This document shows, one piece after another, positions 3,901 to 28,519 of a stretch of DNA of 58,206 nt (its first letter is position 1; every line of letters begins with the position of its first letter). This DNA is from Craspedostauros australis (Eukaryota). The stretch is from positions 1 to 58,206 of the forward strand of contig JALAGF010002173.1 in the NCBI GenBank assembly GCA_030167865.1. The letters are read 5' to 3'. The position numbers and the translations under genes were made by a program. The notes beneath the pieces were generated by a model. That model saw nothing but the letters and a program-made list of their open reading frames with translations, was not told the origin of the DNA and did no database searches.

Positions 3901-6900
3901 AGTTTGCCGCGTCTCGAACTCATTCGTTCGAGCGACGAAATCGAGCTCATGCCACCCACCATCCGGAAACCGAAGGAGCTCTGGACCGGAAAGCAGGTGA
4001 TCACAACTCTTCTGAGGCACTTGGCGAAGGGAAATGACCGCGACTCCGCCAAGGGCATGAACCTGCCAGGCGTGTCCACCGAAAGGAAGACGAAGACCCC
4101 CGGCGCTGCATTCGGAGATGCCAACAAGGAAAACCAGGTGCTGATTCGCGACGGCGAACTGCTTCGTGGCGTGCTGGACAAGGCAGCCTTCGGATCTACG
4201 GACTTCTCTCTCGTCCACTCCGTTTACGAGGCCTACGGTCCAGAGAAGGCAGGGCTGCTTCTGAATTCCTTCGGCAGACTCTTCACAGCATATCTGCAGT
4301 ATTATTCAGGCCATTCGTGCAGAATGGAAGATCTGGTCCTCACACGAGAGGCAGACGCTGCAAGGCGCGAGCTGGTGCAGGTACGTGTTCCTCTTCCGTT
4401 TCCAGTTTCTCCTCCTCGTTGTACCCATGATGCTCTGTATCTGGTGTCTTGGATGCATGCGATATTTGCTCGAGCGCACTACTGGTCGGAGGGCTCGTAG
4501 CAAAGTGCAATGGACTGCGCGCTTCGTTTGACGAGAAAACACTTCGAATCTGCTGCGCTCTTGCATACTCTACCGAAGTTCGAGACGAGTGATTCAAAAG
4601 CCGTATCATCCTCCTTCCTCACACTTACGCACCTATTGCTTGCTCTACGTGCATCGCATGTCAAATCAATACCACATCATGGGATTGCATCCTCCATCTA
4701 TCTCTATGCACATCGGCAATGCAGGAGGCATTTGTGATGGGGTCCCGGTCAGCGAAGGCGTGGGCCGATTCCGAAGGTGGAAAGGTATCCATCGTCGTGG
4801 AGGAGTCGAACAAGAGCAATGACCTGAAACCGGTCGAGGCAGCCGCAGCAGCATCGAAGATCAGAACGCTTCTCTCTGGCAATGAAGGCAAGGAGAATGC
4901 AGCATCGCTCGATGGATTTATGATGTCCAAGCTGAACCCGCTGGCCTCCAAGATCGTCAAGTGCTGCCTCCCTGGCGGCCTGGCCGTTCCATTCCCGACC
5001 AACGTGAGTACTCTTTCTATTCTATCGTATGGTGCTCAATATCGATGATTTCAAGTGCTGTGGAGACCGCTGTGATAGCCTGATCCAACCACATACGTCG
5101 AGCGAGGAATGCGTTCATGCCATCTCACAATTGACCCCATTGTCTTCTTCATGATTCTACACCCACACCTACATTCTTCCGTCACCATTCGCAGACATTT
5201 GGTATCATGGTGACCACCGGCGCGAAAGGATCCATTGTCAATCAATCCCAAGTATCATGCGCGCTCGGTCAGCAGGCGCTTGAGGGACGCAGAGTGCCTC
5301 GAATGAGCAGCGGGCGCACACTGCCGTCATTCGCGCCGTACGATGTGAATCCTCGAGCAGATGGATTCGTGATGGATCGATTCCTCACAGGCATCCGTCC
5401 ACAGGAGTACTACTTCCACTGCATGGCGGGCAGAGAGGGTCTCGTCGACACTGCCGTGAAGACGTCGCGATCTGGATACCTGCAGCGTTGCCTCGTGAAG
5501 CACTTGGAGGAACTCAAGGTTGGCTACGATTTCACCGTTCGAGATGGGGAAGGCGGAGTCGTCCAGTTCCTTTACGGAGAAGATGGAATCGATCCCACGC
5601 AAGCCTCCTACCTTGACTGCACCAAGAAATCGTTCGAATTTATGGCGCGCAACTACGAAGCACTGGGTCGCCGCCAGAAAGCTCTTCCAGGGGCCTCCAT
5701 CCGTGTTGCCGCCGAGGATGCGGAGCGCCGCAAGGAGCTCGCAGCCGAAGATGGTGCCAAGGCGAAGGTGGGTGACTTCGTGCAGGCCAGACGCCTTCGT
5801 TTTGGCGACGAATGGTGTCGTGGTGCCCTTTGCCTTGGCTGGCATGATGCAATCATCGTCGATCTTTACGAGACGAAGAAGGGACGAGCTATCGCTGATT
5901 TGAAGTACCTGAAGGACGATGCGGTCGTCAAGCGCGTTCCGTTCGAAGCCGACTTTGGCGTGCGGGGCAAGGTTGTTCACAGCGTTGCCAAGATCATCAA
6001 GGCTGCTGTGCCGGACCCAGTCATCTCCACGCCGCAACGCGGGGGCATGCTCGGACGAACTGGCATCTCTATCTCTGAAAAAGTTGCAGAATCGGCGGTT
6101 GGGCACATCCAGAAAAGTCCAGCCATGCGCCAAATCTTGGATTCCAAGTCGATCTCTGACGAATCCTTTGGGTCTCTGATTGCTGCAAAGTACAGCTCTT
6201 CGATCTGCGCTCCTGGAGAAGCAGTCGGTAGTATTGCAGCCCAGTCCATCGGAGAGCCGTCCACGCAGATGACCCTCAATACTTTCCATCTTGGTAAGTG
6301 CCCGCAATCATTCATTCTAGGTTGCTCTGGAAGTGTCTTGTGAATGAATTCTGCCCATTGCTCTGCTTTGCTGGTCTTGTCTGAGTGATGCGATTTGATG
6401 TGGTGCGGAGTTATGGTGGAACCTGGGGGATGGATTTCCCGCCATGTGAGCATCATGAATCTGAATTGTTAAACGGCGTGCCATCATTGCATCGACCACT
6501 GGCTTTTGCGGGCTGGATATGGCCTGCACGAGGAGCATAGCGCCGCTGCCCAGCCAATGAACGAACCACCGAACCAACTGCAAAAGAATCCATCTTTCCT
6601 GACCTCACACCCTTTGCGCCTTTCTTCATCGTTTCGTGATCTCAACGTCATCTTCTCATCCCCATCTTCCAATCCTACGCTTGCAGCTGGAGCTGGTGCG
6701 AATGTGACCCTTGGAATTCCTCGACTGAGAGAGATCATCATGACAGCATCGAGGGCAATCAAGACGCCGACGATGTCTGTGCCTTTGGACGACTCTGTTA
6801 CAGACAAGGATGCCACCCGTCTCACCCGTTCGTTTGCCAGACTGACGCTGAACGAGCTGATCAGAGGTGAAAAAGGAGTCGTCGTCAGAGAATCATTGGA

Positions 6901-8062
6901 GAGCAACGGAGGCGGTGAATGGGAGCGATCCTACAAGATCTGCATCTCGTTCCATCCCGCTGAACGCATCCTCGAAGCCTTCGGATTGACCTTGCACGAT
7001 ATCGCCGCAGTTGTGAATCACCAATTCATCAAGGTTCTGAATCACTTGATCAAGACAGAGGTTCGCAGATCATCCACGGGAGATGAGAAGAACCACTCCG
7101 TCGCGGGCGCCGACGAAGCTACGATCATCGGCGACGAAGAGACCAACGACCGTGCCAAGGCGAAGGGCAAGACCAAGTCGGGCGGACGTGGAAACGACGA
7201 CAATTCAGGCGGTGAGTTGTCGGAAGACGAAAGCGTCGATTCCATTTTGAATCAAGAAGATGGCGCTTCCAAGACACAGAAGGATGCCTACGACAGCGAC
7301 GACGACGATGATGATGATGATGATGGAGCAAGGCAAGGCAAATCTGGGAAGGTTGCTACCGGCAAGAACACATCCGGCGGCTCAAAAGATAGCGACATTG
7401 ATGAAGACGACGATGACGATGAAAATGCCGTCCATAACCCTATCGGTGACTCCAAGCATTCGTTGGTCATTGATACGAAGGCGAATTCCATCCAGCTGAA
7501 GCCGATCCGCATCGACCCATCGGCGCGACCACTGCTCATGGTGGGCCTTGTGGAGCAGGCTGCGAGGAAGGCCATTGTCCACAGCAGACCTCGCATCGAT
7601 CAGGCATACATCAATGATGAAGAGGGTCGTGGACGTTGCTTGCAAACGGCAGGAGTGAACTTCGAGGAACTCTGGAAGCTGTCAAACGTCGCGCACAACA
7701 AGCTCATGTCCAACGATGTTTGGGCCGTGCGTACGGCGTATGGTGTGGAGGCCGCCAGGAACAATATCGTCGATCAAGTTCGTAGCGTGTTTGGTGCCTA
7801 CGGTATCGAAGTCGATCCGCGTCACTTGACGCTCATTGCCGATTACATGACATACAGCGGCGGTTACACCGCGATGAACCGTATCGGAATGAAGGACACG
7901 AGCTCTCCATTCTTGCAGATGAGTTTCGAGACCACGGCAACCTTCCTCACACAGGCTGCCCTAAGTGGAACGTGCGATCAGCTCAAGAGTCCAAGTGCCA
8001 ACATCGTCGTTGGACGTCCAATCCGCCATGGAACGGGAGCATTTTCGTTGCTGGTTCAGTAG
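983..8062 (+). CDS. RPA1: DNA-directed RNA polymerase I largest subunit (A190/POLR1A), 7 exons, 1731 aa
   Basis: Exons 983-1044, 1386-2952, 3343-3430, 3656-4380, 4725-5003, 5195-6293, 6687-8062 (5196 nt, in frame, all GT..AG). Motifs: GGLYDPRMG, zinc site CPTC..CPGHFGHIEL, GIFRKHMMGKRVD, NRQ|PTLH, catalytic NADFDGDEMN, bridge helix MAGREGLVDTAVKTSRSGYLQRCLVK, trigger loop SIGEPSTQMTLNTFH..NVTLGIPRLREI, and MSFET. An acidic expander-like insert (about 7080-7440) and the absence of CTD heptads indicate Pol I. Confidence 0.96.
3020..3133 (+). ncRNA. Intronic box C/D snoRNA (snR40/SNORD32-like guide for 18S rRNA) in RPA1 intron 2
   Basis: Box C ATGATGA 3027-3033, D' CTGA 3053-3056, C'-like ATGAGAA 3066-3072, box D CTGA 3122-3125, terminal stem CACTCCA/TGGAAGTG. 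The guide GTCATGCACCAC (3040-3051) is complementary (one G:U) to conserved 18S GUGGUGCAUGGC. Confidence 0.75.
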
Positions 8063-8940
8063 GGGACGGATAGGTGATGAAAATGATAATGATAGCGCAG
8101 AGTGAACGAAGTCGGTTCTTCCAGGGGAGGTATTCGTACCATACGAGCATGGTATGGCACAAGCAGCAATTAACACGTGGGCCATGGCAACACGACATCG
8201 AAAGAACAGCGGCATGATACTCTCTCTCTAGAGTACGAGTACACTGTTGCGCTGTGCACGCTACGAGTACGAGCACGGCGTGTTTGATTCTGAAATTGTC
8301 GAGGTAAGCGAATGCACGTGCTAGTTCTCTGGAGAGGAAAGAAGAGCGCAGCAGAACAGGCGGACCAGAAACAACGACGCGAGGGTTGTATGAAACCGCG
8401 CAACCATACTCTCCTCCGCTCTGCGGGGTTTGGATAAATCAGGCTACTCTACTCTGAAGAGTACTAGTATTATATTGTATGTATTGGTGATCATGTGAAA
8501 TGTGCAGTCGTGGCATCATGGCGCCGAGGGCGTCGTCCGAGCACATTGCGTGATGGGGATCTCTTTTCGAATACGAGCATGTTTGCCGACAGGTGCAGTT
8601 CTGAGTGGACGAACGATCGATCGAGAGAGAGTTGATCTGAGGACAAGCGTGTTATCCACGAACGGATAGCAAGAGCCCTCCGTATAACAACATGCTTCCC
8701 CGACAACAACTTGTTCGCATGAGTGCTGGCGAAGATGCGCTAATCCCTGCGCCGACCATGATGGAGTCTCATCAAGCTGCTGATACGATATGTCCGGTGG
8801 CGCAGGCCAGGCCATGCGTGACGAAAACCAGGGCCGGACATTCCGTGCTGCAGCAGACGATGCCGACGAGCATTCTGTTGTTGTGTAGAGCCGCTGCTGA
8901 GGCCTTCATCTTGTTGGAGTCCTCCCTTCCGTGTGCATCT

Positions 8941-10315
8941 TTATCCCACCATCTCGATGATCTGATTGTGTTTGAGGAGAGTCGCAGGCTTGGACGTTGA
9001 CATGTTGGCAACTGTGCCGCCATTGGGATACGATCGTGAACCGGCCGTTGGGTAGAACTCGAGGAGGAGATTCGCAATCCTGTTGTTAGCGGATGAGAGT
9101 GGATCGAGGATGGGAAGGATTCGCACATCCACGTCACTGTCGGTACGAAGTAGGCTCTTCCACATGTCGCTGTTGCGGAACGGGCCACCTTTGAGTCCAT
9201 GCCGTGCGCGATCCATGGCATCTTGGAGCATGCTGGCAACTGGCTGCCGCAACATGCTCAGTCCCAGCATGTTGGAGTCGTTGGGACCATGCGCCTTCAA
9301 GAACGCCTTGTTCATGTAGATGATCAAGAATGGAGCGTTGGCCGTCACGATCAGTCTGAAATGGCAGAGGCGCGGAACAATGGAACAGAGGATGGTGTAG
9401 AGTGTGACAGTGTGACAGTGGGAAGTAACAAAGGATGAAACGAAACGGCATACGCATGGGTGTGAGAGCGTCGTCAGAACAATCTCGTGACCGCGCAACA
9501 ATCCGGCATCTGTCAACAGAGTTGCAGTCAAACTATGTTCTTCACGACGTGCCGACTCACTTTGGAAAGTTGGAGAGTGACATCGCATTCGACATTGGGA
9601 TGCTCTCGCCAGCGCAAGCATCGCGCAAGATTCCCGCAAGCACAGTCTCCACGCTGAAGTTCTCGATGTGATGGTGATGAAGCAAAGATTTTGGAACTTG
9701 ATTCAAGACCGGGAGGGTGCGTGTGGTGGATGTGGGGACGCCGCTGGGGTTGCCGGAGTTGGCGGAGACCTGGATGCGACCAGTCTTTGTCTTTTTGCTC
9801 ATCTTTGCGTTGTTGCGGCCTCTGTTGTCACGGCTGTTGGAAAGGAGATGCAACACTGAGCTGTTGTCAATCTTGAATCGTTTGCGGTCTGCCTCTCCCG
9901 CAAACGGGAAAGAACCGGCGCCAAGAATCCCGGCTCTGGTTGCATGATTGGCACGAGCTGCGGGCATGCTGTTCTTCCTCTTCTGCTGTCCAGCTTGCTT
10001 GGGTTCCTTCTGACGGTTGAGCACCTCGATCACTTCCCTGGCCTCCTTCCAGATGGGCGATTCGATCTCCTTGTGGTCTCCCTTGGATGCCATCTTCAGC
10101 GCGGTGGATGCCTTGAAGGCTTCCTCATTGATCTTAAATTTCGCGATTCGACCAAAGATGCTCTGTTTTTGTCGAAGGAAGGCGATATCCTGCCGGATAC
10201 CGTCGCTGCAGGCGTGAATGCGTGCCCCCTCCCGCATCTCCGACAAAGATGGGTCCAGGAGAAAGCTGTGGCATCCAGAGGAATCGACGACGCTTCCTGA
10301 AGCTAGTTCCACCAT
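8941..10315 (-). CDS. Uncharacterised protein with C-terminal PAS-like domain (PAS-A), 2 exons, 389 aa
   Basis: Exons 10315-9561 and 9355-8941 (GTGAGT donor, TTCAG acceptor; 1170 nt in frame). The joined sequence ...MSLSNFPK|LIVTANAPFLIIYMNKAFLKAHG...MLG...VDVRILPI...IANLLLEF resembles a PAS fold (I-x-x-x-N-x-A-F motif). Basic NLS-like segments QQKRKN and DRKRFK are present. The start codon is uncertain. Confidence 0.65.
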
Positions 10316-10435
10316 AGTCGTCTTGCCGCCTCCCCCACCTTGCTGGGTTTGCTTACTGCGGTTGGTTTGATTCTGCTTGGCTTCAGCCGCTGGTGCTGCT
10401 GCGTTTCTTGGTTTTGCTTGCGAGAGCTATTGTTG

Positions 10436-10455
10436 TCTCTCTCTCTCTCTCTCTC
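10436..10455. repeat. (CT)n microsatellite
   Basis: tctctctctctctctctctc in the 5' flank of the PAS-A gene. Confidence 0.85.
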
Positions 10456-11677
10456 CTCTCGTATTGAGAGCGTGTGGTATTGGTATTGTTGTTAGTGCTG
10501 TTGTCGTTGCTCCAATTTCGAAGGAGTTTGAATGATTATGATTCAAGAGAGGACTCTTCTCTATTATATGATGCGTTTTGCAGTCTTTGCGAGGTGTCGC
10601 CTCTTGTCATGTCTTGGTTTTCTGCGTGGCCCTCCGTCATCGCTGTCATCGTCTCCGTCTGCTGGTCATGTCAGTCGTTGCTGTCTTTGCTGTCTCCGCT
10701 TCTCTGTTTTGTTCCTCGTTCTGATTCTTGTTCTTTGATGCTTCACGAGGCCTTTTTCCACGTGTGTTGTGGTCACAAGAAGACAGACACAGTCCCACAT
10801 CTTGGAGATTGTCATCGACTGTGGTTCTCATTTTGTCATGCTTGGCGATAATTGGAATTTGTGGTACGCTGTTTTGCATCACAAAGATCAGTCGGATTCG
10901 CATCTCCCAAGGCCGACAACCCAAAAAGTGGACCGGACGGCATCTGACGTGTTCATTTTGTGTCTGGAATGATTGATCGTCATAAATAAGCCTTTATGTA
11001 GCCATCAAACGTCATATTCATGAACCAATCAAAACATCGAAAAAGGACAACGCACGGAAATCATAGCCACATCAGATGGAAAGGGTAATTTTCGGTATTC
11101 GACTTAACGAGAATCGACCTCGTCATGTTCCACAGACGCAAAGACGACCAACGGCATCCACAACGAACAAAAGCCGAAGAGGGCACGATCTGCATGTCTT
11201 GCCTCAAATTGTTGTCACAGAGTCGCCGAATGTCGTAACTTCTTCCAGCCATCAACATCCATGCAATCTCCGGCGTTGTGGGACTGTTGATGCACGGTGC
11301 TCGTGTGGAATGACATGGCGCAGGTCCAGGAGGCCATCGTTGCGTAAAATCGGAGTGTTCCGTGCAGAAAACCGACTGGGGAACTCATCAACAATCGAGC
11401 ACAAAGGTCAGAAGAGACACGAGACGGGAGACGGGAGACGGGGAGGCAAGAAACAGACAACGACACTCGCAGAGGTGTACAAAAACAAACAACAAAGAAA
11501 CGAGAACAATAAGAAGACGAAGCAGCAAGAGAGAAGCGGAGAGACAGAGAGACTGATAGTGCGATAGACACAAAGGAGAGATATCGGAGCAAGAGGCCAA
11601 GCCAAGCTTAGTTCGCACCATCAGCCGCATCAGCTGCGGCATCCATCCACCATCATCATCGTCATCAAAAACGAGCA

Positions 11678-14600
11678 ATGAGGGATTCCGCGGATGAGGA
11701 GAGCCCACTGACGACTGGCGACAGTGAAGCATCGAGTTCGAGCAATGATGCTGAGAAACGTACCGCGTCCTCTTCAAGCAGGATGGCCGAAGCTCCACAA
11801 TTGAACATGAGCGGTTCTGCTATTCACTCTGATGTTGGTGGTGGTGGTGGTGGTGCTGTTTCGGTTGCTGTTACGGTTGCTCTTGCAGTTGCTGACACTG
11901 CCGCAACCGCTGCTCCACAAAAGCCGAGCGATAACCGAAATGATCACGGAGGGAGCAATGGGAGCGGTCAGAGTCAGAACGGCAACAACAGTGGAAGCGG
12001 AAGTGGAGGCTACAGCGCCGATTGTTCATCATCCGACGCTTCGTCTTCGGAAGGTGCCAAGGCCAAGGGTTCCTCCAGCAAGAGCAAAGAGGCAATGTCA
12101 CGAAATGCAACAACTTCAGCTGGTGCCGAACGTCAGAAGAAACGATCTGGCCAAGGCCAACCAATGGAACTGGATAGTAGCCACACTGGTCGGTCGACGC
12201 CGTCCAAGGGGATCGGAGTTGCCACCATTGCTGCAAAACCACGCAAAGGCTCCAAAACTGATACAGGCCATGATCGGCGATCCGAAGCATCACCTGAATC
12301 GTCCATGCTGCCTCAATTCAATGGCTTCCGTATCACGCACCTGTTGGATCCACGGATCGACCTGAGCACAGTGAAGCATGTGCAAGCATCGTCGGTGTTT
12401 TCCTTCCCACACAACGTGGCCGTTCCAACCCAGACGTTGAATGATAATACGGACGTTCCCATCACTGACCAGCCAATGGACACAGATGAGCCTCCCGGGC
12501 CATCAATCGACCAGTATGCAAGCTTGATGGAGGTAGGTACTGTTCTGTCATGCTCGTCCCATCCGTGTCCGCACTTGTGCTCTGCACACGTACGGATAGT
12601 CGTCCAACAAAGCGGTGCGAGTATTCGCACCGACTCCCTCAACGACTTATTCGTGTGTGACTTTGAATCAGCTGATGCATGGGTACCAACGTCAATGCGT
12701 CAATCTTGTTGACACCGTGCAACTCACTGAAGTTGCTCTCCTCAATACTACTGTATATCCTCTACACGTACATCAACCCGTTGAACTGTATGATTGTGTG
12801 TTTTGCAGGTTGTAAAACCTTTCTTTGAGTTCAATGGCATTGACAACATCACATACCCTCCTTCCGACGTGCAAGAAGAAAAGGAGCAGCTTCCATCGAA
12901 TACAGCTGAAGCGATGGCAACCTCAAATGGGATCCACGCTCTGCAGTCATCGGAAGCATCGAGTGACCATGCAGCAACAGACAGACTCAAGGAGCAGCAA
13001 CGAGCTAGCACGACGCAGCGAGGAGATGACAGCCGTTCCATGGATAGCGATTCATCCTCCATGGTCGTCCTCGCTAGAGTCAAGAGGAAGCACATCCGCA
13101 AACATGATGAGGAGCAATGCAACGACGGGTCGAACACGTCCCTCCCCGGGAGTTCCAACTCTTCATCAACCTCTCTCGAAAAGAGAAGCAGCGATCACAA
13201 CCATGAGCAGGCCGTACGTCAATCCGATCATCAAAGGGCTCCAAGCATGAAGCCCGTGGAGAGTTCTGGATCAATGCGACTGCGAGACCCTGGATCAGCA
13301 GCAGGTTGCGATACTGGAGATGGGGCAGCCCAGAAAGCCTCGTCTGGATCGTCACCCTCCCGAAACAACAAGAACCAGAAGAATGGGATCGATAATGAAA
13401 ACAGCAAGAGGCAGAGCAATGGCAAGAGCTTAGACCCACAAGACTTCAATGAACAACGGAGGCAGCAGCATCCACAGCAGCAACAGGTGCATGATGTGCA
13501 GGCCAATCACCACGCGGGGGCACGAAACGCGTTGAATGTCGCTGTGGATGTAGATCCAGGCGTTGGCAATGCAAACCATCCGCCAGACCAAAGTCCAAGC
13601 GCCAACGGTGATAACGGCGACAACGTCAGCGATGGGGACATCAACAACGGCCCAAACCCCAACGTAAACAGGAATCCAAACGCCAATCTGAATGGAAACG
13701 CAAATGCGAACATCGGCCCTGACGCTATGAACGACGAACGAAGCGACAGAGGCGAGAACAACAACCGTGGCCGCGAGCAAAGACGAGTGCCCGAGCACAA
13801 TTTTGGCATGCCAGCCGTCATTTCTGAGTATTCCTCTTCCGCCATTCTTGGAAGCAGCGGAGGAAGCAATACCAACGGGCCGTTGTCAACGTCTGGCTCT
13901 GGGAGTGCTGGTAACACGGGGAGCGGATCAAATCAAGGGGGGAGCTCTGGCAGTGGAAACGATCAGGAGGGCACCTCGTCCAATTCGATCGAGAACAACG
14001 GATCGTCAGGAAGCGGCAACGATGCGAAGGGCAGCAGCGAGGAAGTAAGCGGGGGGAACACTGCGGCACGGAACGGCGCAGGCAATTCCGACGAGACTTC
14101 GTCAAATCAGGGCAAAGATCACAAAGATGCGGACCAACAGCACACAGTTGACGACGGAAACCAAACTACAGCCAGACCGACGACAGGGCAGACGGCGGCA
14201 AACACCGATCAATCACACGAAGGGGAGAAGCACAGAGATGCAGAACGCGAGAAGAAGCTCCAGGACAAGAAACGAAAACGAATGAACATGCGCCGTGAGT
14301 ACGAGGAGAAGGTGCAGCAAGAAATGGGCTCCTCTGAGGGCAGCAGAGACATGAACGAGCCGCTGATTCGCCCAGGGAGGCCAACCACCCTCGACAAGGC
14401 CCTGTCTTTCACAAAGATTGCCCGGTACGTACACTCTCCACGAAGTCGTCAGCATTTCTCAGAATGCCCAACTGCCTCTTTGTCAAGCATGCTACGAGAG
14501 TCCATGCAATCGTTCGTACTTGCACTCATGTAGACACAAACTCACCGTTACTCGCATCAGCTGCTATTCTCATATCCACCTACAAACACAAACACACATC

Positions 14601-15871
14601 AAATTGCAACTTCAGTGTCATCGTCAAGGCAAACTCGCCATACGTTGTTGTAAGTACATTGTGTCCACGTCTTGCGTCTGCCAACCTGTGCCCTACGCCT
14701 GTTTGTTTATTGTGCTTGGTACTTGTCTGTCAATCCAAACACTGCGATTCCCGGTCTCGCGCCATCGTTATTCCTCACTGTTCTCTTCCCGCGTACGATA
14801 CTCCCAACTCACACATATGCATACGCGCGCGCACACACACTCTGCATTTCTATGTTTGCGTTCACCATTCGATGTGCCAATACCACAACGAAGATTTACA
14901 CGAATGCTGCATATACGCGGCTGTCAGGGGTGGATGCGCACTCAGCAGTTGGAAAGCCACTGTCGAATCTCATAGCAGTGCCGTCCGATGAGATTTCCCA
15001 GGGATTGGGGCTACCACCAGGTACTGCAAAGGCCAAGGAAAGCCAAAGCAGCATGGATGACAGCAAGTCAAGCCGTGTTAGTCGCCCCCCAACAAAGTTT
15101 GGAAACCGTCGTCATTCCACGTCCGGTCAGGATCATTCTGAGGCTGCGGCCACAGGACGAACGAAAGCCGAATCCTCCAAGAGTGAGAGTCCAACGCTTG
15201 CCCTCGACCGGTTGCTGACCACCAGCGCAAACACTTCGCCTCACTCTATTCTGGTGGCAGCAAAGCCACACATCATGATGGGCCGCAATGTTACCATCAT
15301 CAAGCAAAGCAACGCAAACGTCAATACGAACACCACTGCAAATAGGCATGGAAATGGTAGTGAAAATGGCAGCGCTCCTCCAAACGACGCTAGTCGCAAC
15401 CGCGAAGAGGGAAGCAACGAAAGCAGCAGCACGTACAGTTACGATGGCTCCTTCCATGCTGTGCCATGCACGATGGTGATATCACCTGTCGTCTCATCTC
15501 CGGAGGCGTACGTTGCCAGCATGCACTCGGACAAGGATTCTGAATCTCACCATCTCCATCACAAATCGAAACGAAGGAAGCATCATGGCCACGCCCATGG
15601 TCATGGGAAAAGCCATCATCACCAGCATCACCAGTATGATGGTCAGAACTCACCTGCGCAGTCTCATAGCACCCGACGCCACTCCCACAGCCATAGCCAC
15701 CAGCACGGCCATTTTCAAACTAGCTTTCACCATCCCCAGGGGAAAGAAGGTCCATCAAATGCCAGGAGGAGGCAACTCGTCACCCACTTTGCCATCCAAC
15801 TCGAACCGCCGGAAGGAAACTCGGAAGATTTTGGCAGTGTGGGATCCCGATCATCTACATCGTCTGGATGA
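11678..15871 (+). CDS. Large low-complexity protein with PAS-like domain and His-rich tract (PAS-B), 4 exons, 1160 aa
   Basis: Exons 11678-12532, 12809-14424, 14616-14649 (34-nt microexon), 14894-15871 (3483 nt in frame; GT..AG). The joined sequence reads ...LSFTKIAR|VIVKANSPYVV|IYTNAAYTRLSGVDAHSAVGKPL, a PAS-type start. It also has a basic coiled segment EKKLQDKKRKRMNMRREYE and Ser/Gly/Asn-rich regions. Confidence 0.75.
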
Positions 15872-16615
15872 TGGGTCGGCGAAGTGAATCTCCTCGGATG
15901 ACACTCCGGGTACACTTGCAATCATGCGCGAGAGGAAGGAAGCTGTCTCCTCCGTGGCCTTTTGCATTCGGTACGTGCGTGATCGTACGTATCATTCTCG
16001 CATACATAGAGCACTATTGGTGTATACAACACTCGTACGCACGAGTACTACATATGCTCAATTCAATGTCTAATCCATCCACTTATGAGAAGACAACTTT
16101 ACAAGAGTGCGGCAGGGTACGTGCATACATGTAGACATAGAGCACTCGACTCGGCTGTTCCCGTGTACATTTCACTTTGCACAAGGTCGTGGAAGGTCGC
16201 ATACTGTCATCTACACAAGTCAAGATACGATACATACGCGGAGGTACTCATGGAGCCCTCGAGGTGTCACCGCACGCCACCACCACGACGATGGCCAAGA
16301 GTTGTTCATGGCATTCTCGTAACATACAACCGCTAGAGTATAGCAGAGACCTCTCAACGCAATTGCTGTTTCTCTTGTTCCGTCAGTGGCATCGTGTCCA
16401 TGCTCTCCTTGTTGGCATTTGATGGCATTTCCCCGTTGCCCACGTCGGCGTACGAGTACGCAACAGTGCGAGCATTGGTACACATATAGTATGTACGGTT
16501 GCCATACATAGTATTCTAGTACATGCTTGTTCTCACAAAAAATACGTATCTCCATATTAGTGGTCGTACCATACCAAGCAAGCAACACCAACGGTGTTCC
16601 CAGGTGCTTTGCTCT

Positions 16616-19600
16616 CTAGTCGATATCCAGCGATGATGCACAGGTCAGAACGTCGCGAAGTTCTGGGAAGATCTCGATCCACAGCATATCGAACAGCATG
16701 TAGAAGAGGCTTTTCATGACGAGCCGGTTTTGAAGCATCTCGTGCAGCATCTCCAGGCCATCGCGCGTGAGTTCAGTCCCAAGGATGGATCTCAGCTGCT
16801 CGGGGAAACCGCGAAGAAGCTTTTCCCGGCACTGTGACTCCAGCTGTTCCTCCTGCTCCTTCGTCAGCGGTGGAGCGAACACCATCCATACTCCATCGGG
16901 CCATAGAATATCCAACAAGAACTTGATCCAGCCGGCGATTGCGTCCGCATTCAGATGCTTCTTGTGGGTTTGGTACAGGAGCTTGCGGAACTCCGACGCC
17001 TTTGTGATAGCCACAAACGAGGCGGCTTCCAATGCAGAGAGCATCCTGCTGCGAAAGAATGAGGCATTCTCGAATCCAAACTGATATTTCACGAGTTCGA
17101 CCATTCGATTGCGCACTTCGCCCAGCGTAACTTGATCAATTTTGTTCATGATGGACTCGATGTTGCCGGCCGCACCGTCGATGGCAGATGCATTCGTGGA
17201 CTCCAACCGATCTGTACCATCAGGCGGTTCCTCACCCAAACCCCCCGCAGCATGAACATCCACAGCGCTGTCGTCTAGTTGAATCTGCGAATAGGCAGAA
17301 GCTCTGTCCCTGTTGACGGCGGTCTGGTTCTTGCTGTTGCTGGCGCTGCCGCCACTGACGCTGCTATTCTTGTTGCCGATGTTACCCCCACTGGTGCTCC
17401 TGCCAATGCCTTGCATGCTGGCTCTGGGTAGATTCGTCTTTGCCAGCGACCTGACGAGCTGAGTGCGACCCAGTGGATCGATGCGGTCGGTTGGGATTGC
17501 TCCGATGAAGATATCCTCCGGGAAGGGATGGTAGGCCCCAAGGAATAGCAACAGCTCTGAGCATCGACTGAGCAAGTGACCTGGAGACAGCATGTACTGC
17601 AGATACTCGTCAAGCAGGTCGCCCCGTTTCGTGATCGCCTTTTTGGTCGCAGCGATTGCCCCGGTTTTGCTAGCTTGCGCCAACGACGGGATCAGTACTT
17701 TGCGCTGGCGTCTGCCCGATCCCGTTGCAGTAAAGGCAGCTGCTGCCGCACCGACCAGGCGAGAACCTGCGCTCGCGGACGCCTCGCTGGTTGCCACCTG
17801 AGACTTGAGGTGTCTGTGAAGCATCTGGAAGTCCTTCATCGATCTGTACACCACCCACTCCTCCCTGTACACACGCGACAGCGTCGTGCCATTGTACTTG
17901 TATGGTTCGAGACTATCCATGCACCGGTTGCGGTTGTCAATCTCGACCAACGCCACGCATCGAATCCTGTAGAATGCGGACGACGCAGCGATCGGTATGT
18001 GCAATGCCAATCCTTTGGGAAGTTCTCGCGGCGTTACGTTGGCCTCGATACAAATTCGAAGGTCCTTGAGGACTGTGGGCGAGCGGGGGAGGAGCAGACC
18101 ATTTCTGCGAAGCTGATCCCTGTCGATGTGATTCACGCCAACCTTCAGATCGCGGAGGACGAAGGAAGATCGAGCATCGCTTGCGAACTCAAGGATCTTC
18201 AACGTTTGCTTCAGCTGTGCTTCTGTCCTGGACTTGGTGGCGCTCTTCGCCGATCCAGCACGGACGCATTCCATTAGGCACTGGTGTTGTGCGGGCAACA
18301 AGTGAGTATGTATCGCATTCACACATCCATACAATCGATGATGCCAGGCGATGTGATTGCGGTGTGATATCCCGCCAAAGGCAGTAATAGGAGCGAACAC
18401 GTCGAATGCTGGTGTGAGTATAGAGTTGTCAAAGTACCCATAGTTGCGGTAATGGTATTGGTAGTGTAGCATTGACAAGTTCGTCACTGTCGTAGCAGCA
18501 GCAGCAGCAATGCAAAATTATCGGTTGTGAAGGACTTGAATTGGGTTGAAAAGAGAGGACAAGGCAAGCTGACAATGGCAAGCTGGGTGTTTGCATCGTT
18601 CCGTCGATGGAAATGATCAATTCTGGTGACCTACCTGGAGCTGTGCTTCCTGCCTCGCTGATGTGACTAACAGAGCTGCCCGAACAAAGGACAGCCTGTA
18701 TGGCTTGATTTCGAAGTTTTTGCTATCCCCTTGCTTCGAACTGAATTTCATGAAGAGCATGGGGTACCCATCAGGTCCCATCTCAATTCTGCTTCTTGGA
18801 TCTGGTCGCGGTGCTGCGTCAGTGCCCTTGGGCGCGGATTTCCCGCTCCGATTGGGAGCATCCCAGTCTTTTCCCAAGGTCAGCAGCAACGCGCTCAATG
18901 CTGGGTCGCTGATTTCCAAACAGCTGGCATCAGCACGATGCGGTCCCCTCGCGCCCGAATCGTAGATTTTGAATCGCTTGCCGCTGAGCTCCACAGTCGG
19001 GCGTTCGAACAGGGACATGCGATAGACGAAGTCCACGGCCTTGCCTGTCCGTGGCATGGCGTTGAAGTCTGTAGTTTCCATGACTGTGCTGGAAAGGAAT
19101 CCTTGGGCAGCTCCGCCTCTCTGTGACCATTTCTGACACAGGTGCCGTTCACGCAGGAACGACCCAGAGATGTAGGACGATGCCAAACCGCTGTTGGATT
19201 CCCCACTGCCTGCGGGGCGTCCTTTCCGTTTGTCAAGTTTGCGGTTGTCGTTCTGGATGGAGACGGATGCAGTTCGATCGATGGGGTAATAATGCACCAG
19301 GCAGCGCCTGATGTATCTACCTCCTTTGAATTTGGTAGAGCCATGGGCCAGCGCAGGCTCTTCGTACGTTGCAATGTAGCACTTGTAGCTTAATTCGGAA
19401 TTCCTGTCATCGCGATGGACACTCACAGGATTCAACGATCGTGGCTGCAGGGCATGGTATCAGAGTGGATATTACAAGGAAAGAGGCACAGACGTATTAT
19501 ACGAGTCGACCGTTTTGTTCGTGCAGAGAGCGCAAGATGTTAGTAAGTAGGGCATCATGAGTGCCAAAGCAAAGGTTATTGAAGATAGGCTTGCTGCTCT

Positions 19601-22600
19601 TTCACTTTCAGTACTCGCATTTGCATGCAAGTGACATGACATCGCACAATGCGTTGGAGGCAAAGCAGAGAGCAGTCATTCATAGCATAGAAAGCAGCAG
19701 TAGTAAGACGAGGAGTGTCGCACAAACGCCGCAGAGCTGCGAAGTAGGGCATCCATGCACGTGCACATGCACATGCACAGATAGATGTTGGTGCGCGGTT
19801 CGGACAGAGCACTCGTACATACCTGTGCCTTCAGCAAGAACGAGGAATCGTCATCTGGCACCTCGATACGCCTTCGGTTGCCTGCCATCTCGACGGTCAA
19901 GAGAGCAACCCTCGCTTGACTACCGTCTTGCTGCTTCGACTCGTCGCCATCGTCCGCATCCTTGCGTCTTGCTGCATCTCGCACAGCCATCATGTTGGTT
20001 CCGCTGTAGAAGATCCGAGCGAGACTGTGAAGTTCCGAGAAGAGTTCGGCCTCGACTGCTGACGCATTCTTGTGTTGGACTGGGCGGACGCTTGGGTCCA
20101 CCTCCCTGGTTTCCCACGCCTGCAGTCTCCGCTCTCGTTCGGATCGAAGACTGGAGGCAAAGGCGGAGTTTCTGTGGAAATCCAAATGTCGCGGCGTGGA
20201 TGAACTGCTGGCCTGATGTAACGCAACATCATGGCTGCTGTGAGTGCCAGGTTCCTCGCTGGTCAGCCGCGACAGGCTGGACTTGAGGAATAGCAATTTC
20301 CTACTCGAGTTCTCTTGCGACGTGGCCGTGCCCGTGGAGCTACTTCTGCCCAGCTTCTGCATGGATGGGATGCCTCTTGGCATGGTCCCGACCGCGTTTC
20401 CGACGTCATCGTCCGGAACGGCATTCAAGTCCAGCCGAGGACTGGCAAGCACCTCGGTCGTCTCCACGATGATGTCCAAGCCGTCGAACGTTCGTATTTG
20501 CGACATGAGCACTTCTATTGAGTCGCCGTCGTTGAAGAAGGCGTTTGGTGAAAAGTACTTTCGGAGGGTTGATTCCATGCCCAATGAAATGCACAAGATG
20601 GCGTTGTAGAGTTGGCCAGTGTGGAGCCAGGTGGATATCAACGTTCGAACCGTCGCGATTTCATTTTCATCAGGTTCGAAAGGTTCCTCGTACATATGCT
20701 CTGGAGTCAACGGAGGTGACGAAGCGTTACGTGCAGCCTCGTGTCGCTCCATCTTCCGTTTGAAGTCGTCCATGTCGGCTGTCATTTGCATCAGCTGCTC
20801 GATGAACGGCAAATCTTCATCTTCCTCCATGCCCCGTCGGGAATATTCGTCTTCGCCAGTCTCGGTTCCCACCTCGATGGTGGAAGGTCTGCATCGACCA
20901 TGGAGTATGCAACGTTCGAGTGTAAGCACCAACCGCACAACCAATGCATGGAAATCGTCGCCACCATGGTTGAAGGGTTCGTCACGATTTGCCTTGTCGG
21001 TGGAATTGAATTCGACGAACTGAGGAACCTGCTGCATTTCAAAGATGGTGATGCTGAGCAGGGTAAGAATTTGGCGCCGTTCGTAGAGATCGTCCGTCTC
21101 CATGGCACTCATGGAATCCTGTGACATGGCGCGTTTGGTGGAAGGCGTGCTGACCTCCTTCGAAGAAACAATGGAGCTGTGGCTTCGGTTGAAATCTGGA
21201 CTGTCGATGGTCGAGGGGTGCTGCATAGATGTGTCAACTTCTTCCGTCGCGTCGCTTCCAGAGTTTGCGCCTGTAGCGAGTACTGCCGATCCCGTTATTC
21301 CTGTCGTAGCCCTCAATTCCAACTCTACGGATGGGTCAAAGTCGGAAGCCTCTTGTGCTGATGCGCTGTATTGATCTTCCGATGCTGCGGCTGCCTCGGC
21401 TCCTGCCGCCGACGTTGATTGATTCAATATATCGTCAGCGGCAGCGGCATCGGCAGCGGCATTAGTATAAGCATCTCCAACTGCTGCATCTTCAGTACTG
21501 TTGCCGTCGTTGTCTGCTGTCGCGCTTTGGTCGCCGAGCTTGTCCATGCCCATGGAAATCCACGAGTTCAGGGTGGTGGGAACGAACAGATTCATGAGTG
21601 GCTGCAGCACGCAGCCGGCAAAGATCTCAATCACAAGAGCTGCGACGATGGGTGAATTGAAGTCTTGTCGTGGCAGCAACGCCCGGACCAGCCGATGGCC
21701 CAGAACTCGATTGTAATCGAGCTCGCAGCTGCGTGCCATGCCGGAGTCGAAGAGTCTCTCTTCCAGGATGTCATTTTCGGTTTGCCTGCCACCTTGCTGC
21801 CGACGTTCGTCTTCGGTTGCAAACTCGGTACCCGCTGGATCAGCAAAGAGCAAGGACGGGACGTCGAGTCCGAATGTGACGGATCGGTGCAGACGACGCG
21901 CGATGAGGTACTCGCGGAGGACGTCCATCTCGGTCGGCTTTTGCGTCGCATCGTCCAGCTTATCCACCGCATTCTTTCGCATCTCTCTGTACACTTTGAA
22001 TGTGTGCGCCAGCACGTGCGGCCACTTGAGCAGCAGCAACGACCAGAGGTTGACATGCTCAGTTCTCATGGCGAGGTTGCCAAAGGCATGCGACAAGACC
22101 TTGTACGCGCTCCCAAGGAACGGTGTCGTCCGGAACTGCGATATGTCCATGGTAAGATTTCTTTGGCCTGGCTGTTGCTGCTGCTGCTGCTGCTGTTGCT
22201 GTTGCTGGGAGCTACCTGCCTTACTCCTGTCACCAGCATAATCCTTCTGCGATTGCACATCTGAATCAGATGATGGCGATGTGCCCGCCATTGCTGACGA
22301 TGTGCGGCCTGTGCCGTCTCTTGCGATGCCATCGTCCCGCTTTTCCCTCTCAGGCCGGAACTTGCACCCGGCATCGATGATCGAATACCACCCACTGTGA
22401 GTGGAAGCAAGCAAAGGAGCGTGATGCGGGGTGCGATGGAAGCCAGGGCGGAAGGACACGAGAGGAAGGGGAACGGGACACTGGCGGGTCAGTGTGTTTG
22501 GCGTTTGCTTTCGATTGATGCAGAATACAATGTTCTACCAATATTCCACTTGCATGTCCATGTGGGAACAGCAGCACCATAAGAAGGACATGATCATGAA

Positions 22601-23379
22601 CATGGATATGAACATGGATACGGACATGAAGTACACGGAGCATACGTGCAGAGAGTGGTGGCATGCAATGCAATCCGACGCAAGCATCTTCCGAATCCGA
22701 TCCATCATCGGCAACAGGACGAAACGCGGGCGTACCTGATGTAGTCTCTCATGATATGCTCCACAAAACGACCCAGCTCCGTTGCCACCGGCTCCGGCAG
22801 ACCCGGCCAGTCCTCTTGAATTGTGACGACCGCTGCTTGCTGATCGATGACGGCATCCGTGAAGGGATACCTCGGGAGCTCGGATGTGGCCGGCTGCTTC
22901 GTGACCTGCGCCCGAAGGATCTTGCGCTCCACGTGGTAGCCGGCAGATTCCATGAGCGACCAGTAGGTGGTGCTGTCCTCCAGGATGCTGGATGTCTGCG
23001 CGCGGACGGGATTAGCGGCCTTGGGTCTGGGAATGGCGAGATTGCGGTTGGCACCGTTCGTTCCGGCGGCGTCCATCTGCTGCATGCGGTGTGCGTGGTC
23101 CAACCCCTGCAGAGTTTCGTAGACGTGCATCGCCAAGCCCAGGCCCAGACCGATTCCCAGCGTGACACCGATCGCCGTGAGCACCGCTCGCACGAGCATG
23201 GTGACGAGCACCACGATCCATGTCTTGTCCGTCACGGCGATGATCGCGACGAGGCAGACGCCGGCTCCCTGAACCCTCCTATCCTGCAGCGCATCGTTGA
23301 TCTTTTGGCGTTTCACAGGATCGATCTTGTCCAGGGCGGATGCCATCGCCGCCTTGGCCTTCTCCATGGTCGTCGCCAT
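16616..23379 (-). CDS. PXA/PX/PXC sorting nexin (SNX13/14/25, Mdm1-like) with N-terminal membrane anchor, 4 exons, 1896 aa
   Basis: Exons 23379-22736, 22394-19823, 19444-18635, 18280-16616 (5691 nt in frame). N-terminal hydrophobic segments are followed by the PXA motif IMRDYI|SGWY and ALLPRQDFNSPIVAALVIEIFAGCVLQP. PX motifs WVVYRSMKDFQMLHRHLK, KRGDLLDEYL and ELLLFL, and PXC motifs WIKFLLDILWPDG and LQNRLVMKSLFYMLFDMLWIEIFPEL are present. Confidence 0.88.
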
Positions 23380-24324
23380 TTCTGCAATCCGTGGTGCAGA
23401 TCCTCGCGCTTGTCTTTTCGCTTTTCCTCTTGATTGATTTGATTTGGTTTGATTTGCTTCGATTTGCCTGCCTTCTGTTTGTACTCGTCCAAGCAATGCC
23501 CCAGTCTTCGAATGTTCATCGATTCCCCCAGTCGCATTGCCAGGGATCAGTGTCGTGATGAGAGAAGAAGCGTCCTCGCATCGAGAGCACTCGCACTCGT
23601 ACTTGTAGTCGTATGCAGAGTACCACTACGGCGTATCAGTAGGTCGTTGGTCGTGCTGCTACAGCGCAACCGATGAGCACGCACAGTGTTTGTGTGTTGC
23701 TGGTTGGCACTGTACGACTACGAGTTGTGCAAGTCGTGGAAGGGTCTCGGATCTTTTCCTTTCGTTCTCTCGTGGGTTTTCGCTCTTTGTGACCGTTGTT
23801 GTTGACACGGTGGCGATTTTCGGTGAAGGTCTTTGATCTTGCGCGATGTTTTTGGCGTTTTCGATTCATCGGACCGCAACAAGCACATTTTGGATATGTG
23901 AACGTCCGTCCGTCTTTCCGCAGTCACGAACAATTCCGGATTCAGGCTTCTCTCGATTTTTGTGGTGTTGGCGCCATCATCCCACATCAAACAACACGAG
24001 AGAGAAAGGGTTGTTGTTGCTGCCTCGGTGGCCACGAGGATGGTGATGGCCACGAAGATGACGGCAGCAACGATGGTGGCAACGATGATGGTGATGAGCA
24101 CATCTTCCCAACAAGTAATTGTACGAGCATGCACACTTCTCTGTGACGATCCAATTGCTCCATCCACTGAAACGAAACACCTTCCATTTCAGAAGAGCGG
24201 CATAGAGTCCACAGACAAACAGCTCAACCAGGTCCAACAAGGTCAGGGAAGATCAGGCTGATCACGCCAGACACCAGCGTATCCAGAGTACTGAGCTGTG
24301 CAATACTCTATTAGTATATCAGCC

Positions 24325-27698: not shown

Positions 27699-28519
27699 GA
27701 TGATACGGTGTCTCAAGAGCGAGGCAGAATGGAGCAGAATGGAGCAGAAGAGAGCACGAGTCTCTATGGATACACTCGTGCTACGAGTATGCGTGATGAC
27801 TCCTGTTTTGATTGGTTTTCGCCTCTTCCCTTTCCGTTTGGTGGTTTGGTTCCCTTGGCTTCATCCGTCTCTCGGCCTCCTTTTGTTGACATCAACGGAG
27901 GCAGACAGATTTTATCGACAGCTTGCGTGGGGCGTGTTGTTTGTCTCCACGCACAGCCGCACACCTCGCCGAAGGTCAGCGCACTGAAAACCGATGTGAT
28001 TGGTTGGCGCGATTCTGGTGGCTTTGTGATTTGTGTTGTTGGTCGGCTTTGTCTTTGCGTTTGTCTTTGCGCGCAAACGGCCCCTTTTCTTCGCCCCGAA
28101 ATTGTCGTGACTGAAGGTTCTTGACTGATTGAACAATAAAAAAGTAATATACAATACTACCGCATATCCTGTGTGTTCTCGATGACGTGGGCAAGTTGTC
28201 AACGTAATCACCAAAGGAACGCAATTTTTCACGCCACAAATCCGAAATCGTCTTCAAACCACACCTCAATGCCAACCAACAAGCATGTCATCAACATCAT
28301 CCACTGTGACGTTCTTCGTGCGAAACAAACACTCAAAAGCAGAGAGAAATCTCTGATGTCATTGTTGTCTGCAACACATTCTGCAGATCCCCCCACACTG
28401 CCCTTCCAATCTTGCTGACATATCATACCAGACATACAAGTGCCACAAGATTTGTATTGAGAGAGACGACGACGCTGACAACAACGACAACGACAACTGA
28501 AGAGGAGAGAGAAAGAAAA

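Follow-up and report, generated by a model that had tools for sequence, protein, structure and literature searches.

A head-to-head gene pair of the diatom Craspedostauros australis encodes ancient paralogues with a putative LOV-derived PAS-like domain

Two divergently oriented genes of the diatom Craspedostauros australis, named here A (minus strand) and B (plus strand), encode proteins that profile and intron comparisons identify as ancient paralogues from two separate families. Both genes lie in a stretch of 58,206 bases (assembly GCA_030167865.1, contig JALAGF010002173.1, positions 1 to 58,206 of the forward strand; hereafter the window), of which the region 8500–16500 was read and gene models were built by script. 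The segment that the two proteins share appears to be a degenerate, LOV-derived PAS-like domain with LOV domains as its nearest relatives in sequence, and the same comparisons show that, in the common ancestral gene, a phase-2 intron already lay directly ahead of strand A-beta in a LOV-type PAS domain. The explanation that fits best as a whole, to which we give a probability of roughly 0.6, is that B is a nuclear PAS regulator and that its ancient paralogue A serves as a PAS-only partner or modulator. What this explanation says on evolution and structure is highly probable, and the functional part is tentative and, in our estimate, somewhat more apt to fail than to hold. We found no description of either family in the open-access literature searched.

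The start codons of A and B are separated by 1362 bases (10316–11677), a putative divergent promoter region. Gene A encodes 389 amino acids in two exons on the minus strand. Exon 1 (9561–10315) begins with the ATG at 10315, and exon 2 (8941–9355, stop codon at 8941–8943) encodes the PAS-like domain from strand A-beta onwards to its C-terminus, followed by a tail that ends in MVG. The 205-base intron between them (9356–9560) is in phase 2 and splits a Lys codon, AA/A (AA/GTGAGT...TTTCAG/A, slashes marking splice sites). Gene B encodes 1160 amino acids on the plus strand. Its exon 1 (11678–12532, ATG at 11678) carries the motifs GGYSADCSS (12005–12046) and LPQFNG..DPRIDLSTV (12308–12382), and the largely low-complexity exon 2 (12809–14424) holds a conserved Ser/Gly block, a basic helix and helix A'alpha. 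Exon 3 is a mini-exon of 34 bases (14616–14649) that encodes VIVKANSPYVV, the strand A-beta region, for which the orthologue consensus LVVKAxPPFxV is equally long; exon 4 (14894–15871, stop codon at 15869–15871) is the part through which the relatives of B described below were found. The predicted intron 1 (12533–12808, GTAGGT...TTTTGCAG) is in phase 0. Intron 2 (14425–14615, 191 bases, phase 2, CG/GTACGT...CTTCAG/T) splits an Arg codon, CG/T, that matches the codon split by the intron of gene A, and intron 3 (14650–14893, GTAAGT...CGAAG, phase 0), which starts at 14650 and not at 14651, has no counterpart in gene A.

The splice junction of gene A is confirmed by two observations. The spliced model is letter-for-letter identical to a transcriptome-derived 389-residue UniRef/MMETSP protein of Craspedostauros australis (P0001) that was found with exon 2 as the query. 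In addition, a single public run (X1), stored as contigs and presumably of RNA, holds part of this stretch: its contig of 1575 bases covers 8800–9355, and with it exon 2, together with 9561–10227, and joins 9355 directly to 9561. The 205 bases skipped are bounded by CT and AC on the plus strand. For gene B, the junctions are supported by orthologue alignments and by splice signals at matching places in other diatom contigs; the orthologues run without a break across ...SFTKTAK LVVKAxPPFxV IYTNAAY..., and the position of intron 1, after LME/VVKPFF, is identical in three metagenome loci (L008, L010 and L011). These models agree with an earlier note on this DNA, made from the letters alone, which had put the start codons about 1.36 kb apart and had placed a phase-2 intron at the same codon of each gene (9356–9560 and 14425–14615), each with a TTCAG acceptor. 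The acceptor is indeed common to the gene A intron and gene B intron 2, and the transcript check proposed for the junction of gene A came out in its favour, the X1 contig skipping 9356–9560.

The shared intron recurs beyond the window. When metagenome contigs were scanned with the alignment of the B family, 13 loci (L001–L013) came up, and across these and the window a phase-2 intron stands at the same Arg/Lys codon in both of the two A genes and in six independent B genes. The A copies are 205 bases long in the window and 88 in L008; the B copies measure 191 bases in the window, 72 in L008, 93 in L009 and L010 (which have the same sequence), about 80 in L011, 88 in L012 and 107 in L013. In A and B alike the intron immediately precedes the segment (L/V)IV(T/K)AN and the codon is split after its second base. 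Because codon and phase agree between the two families, inheritance from their common ancestral gene accounts best for the intron, and we conclude that it was inherited and is not a coincidence. The B genes of L001–L007 are uninterrupted at this site and have presumably lost the intron. In L008, the B gene seems over 7391–9472 to be one open frame of 694 codons, yet it contains one or more in-frame introns, one of them 72 bases long; since this 72-base intron keeps the frame it is hidden by the open frame, a trap for annotation based on open reading frames.

With protein A as the query, HMMER scanned 1.84 billion representatives in full and recovered 24 proteins of the A family at an expectation value (E) of 1e-3 or lower, A itself included, leaving 23 relatives; most are 260–630 amino acids long, and their matches fall in two parts, one N-terminal and helical, the other the C-terminal domain. 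A profile search of a word-indexed database found 2 A-family proteins only. With the last exon of B as the query, 34 relatives were found at E <= 0.01, in proteins of 570–2000 amino acids. All B relatives with a named organism come from diatoms (Nitzschia inconspicua, Seminavis robusta, Cylindrotheca closterium, Pseudo-nitzschia multiseries and one Bacillariaceae assembly), and the one from Nitzschia inconspicua is labelled 'PAS domain-containing protein' in UniRef. Across the 58-kb window, only genes A and B match either family profile.

Homology between the two families is carried by the segment around the shared intron. Aligned with hhalign, the A and B family profiles match with a probability of 98.4% (E 9.5e-15, 72 columns) over a stretch that opens with the helix preceding the domain and closes with GxP(I)(E/T)S(I/L)L. 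The two window proteins, for which the earlier note had claimed alignable segments, give a local alignment score of 92 against 34 +/- 5.3 in shuffles, with none of 1000 shuffles reaching 92. When A exon 2 was compared with B exon 4 by BLASTP, no match emerged (E 75); most of the shared B segment is encoded by exons 2 and 3 together with the first residues of exon 4. The proteins are colinear outside the domain too, in the order (K/R)ID-S-V motif, helix A'alpha and PAS-like core. The upstream motif, kr..ID.SsV in the A family and HPMDPRIDLSTVG in the B family, is a weak match when the N-terminal halves are aligned (28 columns, E 5.3e-4, probability 30.6%); in gene A it reads RKRFKIDNSSV (9854–9886, minus strand), the counterpart of PRIDLSTV in B, and I149 is invariant across the A family. 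A further weak colinear match covers the last strand, I-beta (mSHiLVxV against ISHYVIQLE; 15 columns, E 9e-4, probability 22%). Of two later strand pairs proposed from the sequence, IANLLLEF with VTHFAIQL thus finds weak support, and VRILPI with TMVISPV was not recovered beyond parallel family consensus patterns. On a tree of 60 columns, too short for finer resolution, 37 B sequences form one clade apart from A (support 97/92). One protein that carries the shared domain, P0046 (627 amino acids), falls between the A and B families as sister to B (support 92/75), which hints at further subfamilies. The C-termini may hold another shared motif: G(T/A)VG closes many A-family proteins, window A ends in MVG (8944–8961), and several B tails are similar, with ATVG in L008, TAVG in L011 and GSVG 8 residues before the end of window B (L008 sites 4135–4150 and 9450–9472).

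We assign the PAS-like domain of gene A (amino acids 222–357; 9040–9652, minus strand, interrupted by the intron) from a structural model, its fold matches and the family profile. An AlphaFold2 model built on a 23-sequence alignment has a mean predicted local distance difference test (pLDDT) score of 61.7, with block values of 63–91, mostly above 70, over the domain (amino acids 221–360). All 34 matches listed by Foldseek are PAS or LOV domains (best E 2.4e-3), and all 50 listed in a second structural comparison are of the PAS type, the top one with a Z score of 8.0 and the others with 6.4–5.2. In a search of 48,161 representative chains that was independent of Foldseek, the top 11 matches are of the PAS type, as are all 16 of the best 50 listed that cover amino acids 238–368 (Z 6.7–5.3); the other 34 of these 50 are single long helices placed on residues 31–117. 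The predicted structure of the gene A domain therefore has a PAS-like fold. The top match of the model is the N-terminal PAS domain of TraJ from the F plasmid (4kqd; Z 8.0, root-mean-square deviation 3.3 over 101 residues; Z 6.7 among the 48,161 chains). This is a regulator from a bacterial plasmid, 13–14% identical in sequence, and the likeness is one of fold only. The LOV domain of Phaeodactylum tricornutum aureochrome 1a (6t74, 5dkk and 5a8b) is also among the structural matches (Z 6.4–5.4), tied with many other PAS domains.

The link to LOV domains comes from sequence profiles. Searched against solved structures, the A-family profile has LOV or PAS domains as the best 25 of its 32 listed chains (E 0.002–0.12), and the best matches are LOV-type PAS domains, among them the Brucella LOV histidine kinase (6ph2), Chloroflexus CagFbFP (7oo9 and 6rhf), NifL (2gj3) and phototropin LOV1/2, with E values of 0.002–0.06. 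The alignments run from helix A'alpha through A-beta and B-beta to C-alpha, in several chains on to the last strands, and the A model has the same fold. The A-family segment GkPiesilq aligns at the position of LOV GRN(C)RFLQ. At this site A reads LGLSMLRQPVASMLQ and B reads VGKPLSNLIAV, with family consensus sequences of IGxPxESxxQ and VGNPITSLLS, respectively. At the aligned site both families lack the GxNCRFLQ motif, which binds flavin and holds the adduct-forming cysteine and which the earlier note had already reported missing; they have neither cysteine nor arginine there. The loss of this motif from the core means that neither protein is a LOV photoreceptor and excludes light sensing through a flavin adduct. 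Compared with LOV domains, B also has two long insertions, and neither A nor B is a sensor kinase.

In B, the PAS-like region would span 14369–15808 (plus strand, amino acids 806–1140) and include the two insertions. Its PAS nature is argued from homology to A, near-matches to Pfam models and language-model neighbours. The sub-threshold Pfam matches comprise PAS_8 in window A exon 2 (13.5 bits against a cut-off of 21.8, E 0.071), PAS in window B exon 4 (12.7 bits against 22.6, E 0.13), PAS or PAS_4 in 8 of 11 B orthologues (best 22.4 bits against 22.6) and PAS-type models in 8 of 22 A relatives, and all of them fall on the first half of the models, at about positions 6–89. The ten nearest named Atlas clusters of a B orthologue in language-model space are all PAS clusters (0.94–0.95). 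The nearest neighbour of A is a diatom Atlas cluster at 0.90, in which 98% of members have HLH and 31% have PAS, followed by animal bHLH-PAS families; we treat both sets of neighbours as leads only. Since the domain is split by introns, degenerate and, in B, interrupted by long inserts, both families escape standard domain annotation.

Outside the domain, the two proteins are built differently. Protein A is compact, with an N-terminal helix pair, a disordered linker and the PAS-like domain. The helix pair (amino acids 38–102; 10010–10204, minus strand) is kept across the A family with the consensus IxFLxEKQxLLKRA...IWxEAK; its helices, 38–77 and 87–102, are modelled with block pLDDT values of about 55–93, above 85 over amino acids 41–70 and 91–100, and their structural matches are non-specific long helices only. 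A also has a basic patch, KR..ID. Protein B is long and mostly disordered. It carries a strongly basic, largely invariant helix, AEREKKLQDKKRKRMNMRREYEEKVQQEM (14240–14326, plus strand, amino acids 763–791), which includes KKRKRMNMRR and lies about 15 residues upstream of helix A'alpha. Fourteen positions of this helix are invariant in 36 B sequences, among them the nine-residue run KKRKRMNMR, and in the model of a B orthologue (P0021) it is the only confident element, at residues 265–299 with block pLDDT values of 86–95 over amino acids 271–300. The helix is about 35 residues long and is followed by a Ser/Glu-rich loop with no zipper. That it binds DNA is our conjecture. B further carries a KRRKH patch and, in exon 2 at about 13850–14050, a Ser/Gly/Asn-rich block (SGSGSGGNTGSG...SSGSGND.KGSSEE) with many invariant Ser and Gly residues, a conservation unusual for low-complexity sequence; that the block is a phosphorylation cluster is speculation. 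A His-rich tract in exon 4 (15548–15634), HHLHHKSKRRKHHGHAHGHGKSHHHQHHQ with further His/Ser repeats, lies in one of the two insertions, between the last two PAS-like strands, and in this species enlarges the KSKRRKHHH patch that the family conserves.

Neither protein contains a recognisable bHLH, bZIP or kinase domain, in line with the earlier note: Pfam HLH, bZIP and kinase models gave no match in the window exon translations at E <= 10, nor in full-length A, 11 B orthologues or 22 A relatives at E <= 0.1. The idea of a bHLH or bZIP domain in disguise was considered and set aside, as the TLDKALSF helix resembles bHLH helix 2 by eye and no profile backs that.

With its PAS-like domain downstream of a basic helix, B has the order of parts of the diatom bZIP-PAS, bHLH-PAS and aureochrome factors. 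Passages of the literature describe the diatom bHLH-PAS (RITMO1/bHLH1a and bHLH1b) and bZIP-PAS (bZIP5–7) proteins as having a basic DNA-binding region followed, on its C-terminal side, by one PAS domain, and as linked to diel rhythms (PMC6600994, 10.1101/2020.11.23.393678, PMC9054022), and a passage of one of these papers sets the single PAS domain of the algal bHLH-PAS type against the tandem PAS-A/PAS-B of animals (PMC6600994). In domain number, A and B, with one PAS-like domain each, match the algal type only. They differ from the bHLH-PAS and bZIP-PAS factors in that A, B and their relatives have no Pfam HLH or bZIP domain, the factors being set apart here by their descriptions and not by their sequences. 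Aureochromes consist of a bZIP followed by a C-terminal LOV domain; B has a similar order, with a basic helix upstream and a LOV-type domain C-terminal, and both occur in diatoms, but B has no detected bZIP, no leucine zipper after the basic helix and no flavin motif. A likewise resembles PER-type proteins in having a PAS-like domain without a recognisable DNA-binding domain, and a PER3 Atlas cluster is among its neighbours at 0.87, below the trusted level. PER proteins have tandem PAS-A/PAS-B, whereas A and B have one PAS-like domain each, and no sequence homology was shown; with a single such domain per protein, the PER-like reading put forward in the earlier note is rejected.

We propose that B would act as a nuclear regulator, its basic helix binding nucleic acid or chromatin or at least serving as a nuclear import signal, and its PAS-like domain providing partner binding or dimerisation. 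A, which has no such helix, would be a PAS-only partner or modulator. The two genes would be transcribed divergently, and they have stayed together in at least one lineage with one conserved CCAAT block between them. The nuclear location is suggested by the basic patches in the sequence, and DNA binding, coupling between A and B and shared regulation are likewise inferred. Both proteins are best seen as uncharacterised candidate regulators rather than as a proven sensor pair.

The head-to-head pairing is old but not universal. In L008, an 18-kb metagenome contig from a diatom, a B gene (ATG at 6340) stands head-to-head with an A-family gene (ATG at 5467), the two start codons lying about 870 bases apart; this A gene has its intron at 4535–4622 and a product of 414 amino acids. 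It is only 25.6% identical to window A over 348 aligned positions, which indicates that the source organisms are far apart. The intergenic regions of the window and L008 share, in the same orientation, a 17-base word with CCAAT inside it, TGAACCAATCAAAACAT (11021–11037, plus strand); it is their sole shared word of 13 bases or more, and none of 200 shuffles reached 17. The flanks of this block are not conserved, and a global alignment of the two regions was uninformative. Of the features expected of a bidirectional promoter, the divergent orientation and this one conserved block were seen. Beyond A, the window and L008 share nothing, which places a rearrangement breakpoint just outside the pair. 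The genes downstream of B (16619–18517, 18620–19459, 19679–22534 and 22708–23625, minus strand) form a conserved block, in constant order in six of the longer loci (L005–L008, L010 and L011).

Several results weigh against the proposed explanation. Three of the loci (L008, L010 and L011) have enough sequence upstream of B to judge the pairing, and in L010 and L011 no A-like sequence was found at E <= 1 within 8–9 kb upstream of B, where other plus-strand genes lie. As the downstream block is kept in both, the pair has not been universally retained. Of the old inverted duplication proposed in the earlier note, the old paralogy stands and an inversion in place would be conjecture, with the pair missing in two of the three other informative loci, and the synteny check proposed with it gave a divided answer, the pair recurring in the distant L008 and being absent from L010 and L011. 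The 60-column tree does not place window A and L008 A as sisters, and their orthology rests on position. Pfam PAS models reach the curated cut-off in none of A, the 11 B orthologues and the 22 A relatives. The model of gene A has four strands against the canonical five, and its Z scores are middling, with none of 8 or above among the 48,161 chains, a range that may mean only a common arrangement; it is on account of these two points that we call the domain PAS-like. For B, the P0021 model is poor apart from one long helix, with a mean pLDDT of 43.8 and about 30 in the PAS region, and B-family profiles searched against solved structures gave low-complexity matches or none, and no PAS chain. The earlier claim of PAS-like domains in both proteins is hence borne out for A by its model and PAS/LOV matches, and the B fold was not recovered by modelling. 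In three basic-helix segments no Pfam HLH, bZIP or kinase match appeared at E <= 10, and X1 covers gene A only, with nothing for gene B.

That A and B are paralogues whose adjacency has no functional meaning, with A at the edge of a slowly rearranging block, separate promoters and independent proteins, is unlikely in our judgement, yet well short of negligible. Local gene order is well kept downstream of B in L005–L008, L010 and L011, so retained neighbours are expected even without selection; A is not beside B in two of the three informative loci, and the 1362 bases between the genes are roomy enough for two promoters. This account has to contend with the persistence of the pair in L008 despite the divergence of A to 25.6% identity, with the breakpoint that sits just outside the pair and with the one 17-base block that survives in otherwise unalignable intergenic DNA. 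The reading given in the earlier note, extended here so that A tunes the basic helix of B, has A and B co-expressed as a heterodimer through their PAS-like domains, forming one sensor or regulator. PAS domains commonly dimerise, the domains of A and B are homologous, and both the head-to-head arrangement and the intergenic motif are conserved in L008. Against such a heterodimer, B has no A beside it in L010 and L011, and A evolves far faster, with 25.6% identity between the window and L008 compared with 75% over 72 residues for the basic-helix region of B, a difference in rate that is atypical of tight co-evolving partners; we regard it as doubtful, with odds well below those of meaningless adjacency. 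A complex prediction of A residues 215–362 with a cross-species stand-in for the B domain (L007) scored 0.00, the fold of the stand-in being itself uncertain, and counts on neither side.

It is more improbable still that the shared domain binds a ligand or chromophore other than a cysteine-linked flavin, making A and B genuine sensors, whether of light, of redox state or of a metabolite. The LOV-type PAS core is retained, the His-rich insert of B could bind metal, and B keeps the strand (H)(Y/F)(V/A)IQLE with its glutamine, which probably corresponds to the flavin-contacting glutamine of LOV domains. Such a role fits poorly with the segment GKP(I/L)(E/S)(S/N)(I/L)L that both families have in place of GxNCRFLQ, which contains neither cysteine nor arginine, and with the long disordered insertions in the domain. 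The most far-reaching idea, and a very long shot, is that raphid diatoms have a module for timing or light signalling, as yet undescribed, of which A and B are two parts. It would be a clock-like loop that uses degenerate LOV domains in place of bHLH-PAS proteins, and in it B would be bound to chromatin or DNA and carry Ser/Gly phosphorylation clusters, A would be its PAS-only partner, and both would feed back on the one CCAAT divergent promoter from which they are expressed.

Other features of the locus are noted here. The first gene downstream of B (16619–18517) matches 10 of the 13 loci. A near-copy of the CCAAT block, AAACCAATCAAAACA, lies on the minus strand at 27803–27819 with one mismatch in a 15-base core, and the window has two sites like this block against 0.2 expected. 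A (CT)n tract at 10436–10462 lies about 120 bases upstream of the start codon of gene A. Beyond gene A, an open frame on the plus strand (6473–8062) has no counterpart beside A in L008; by eye we take it to resemble the C-terminal part of a large RNA polymerase subunit. A tandem-repeat scan found a single small repeat (11854–11894), and Rfam gave no match on the sequence, intergenic region included.

Daily rhythms are strong in diatoms, but only a few of the proteins that serve their timing and light signalling have been identified. Among PAS-type factors, those known are RITMO1 and other bHLH-PAS proteins, bZIP-PAS proteins and aureochromes (PMC6600994, 10.1101/2020.11.23.393678). For research on diatom signalling and rhythms, the pair described here is a moderately interesting lead and not a surprise. 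If the proteins prove to be ordinary scaffolds, the result would still be a useful annotation of an uncharacterised diatom family. The two families extend the set of candidate PAS regulators and are clearly tied to LOV domains by evolution, and the conserved A/B gene pair is directly testable for co-regulation and interaction.

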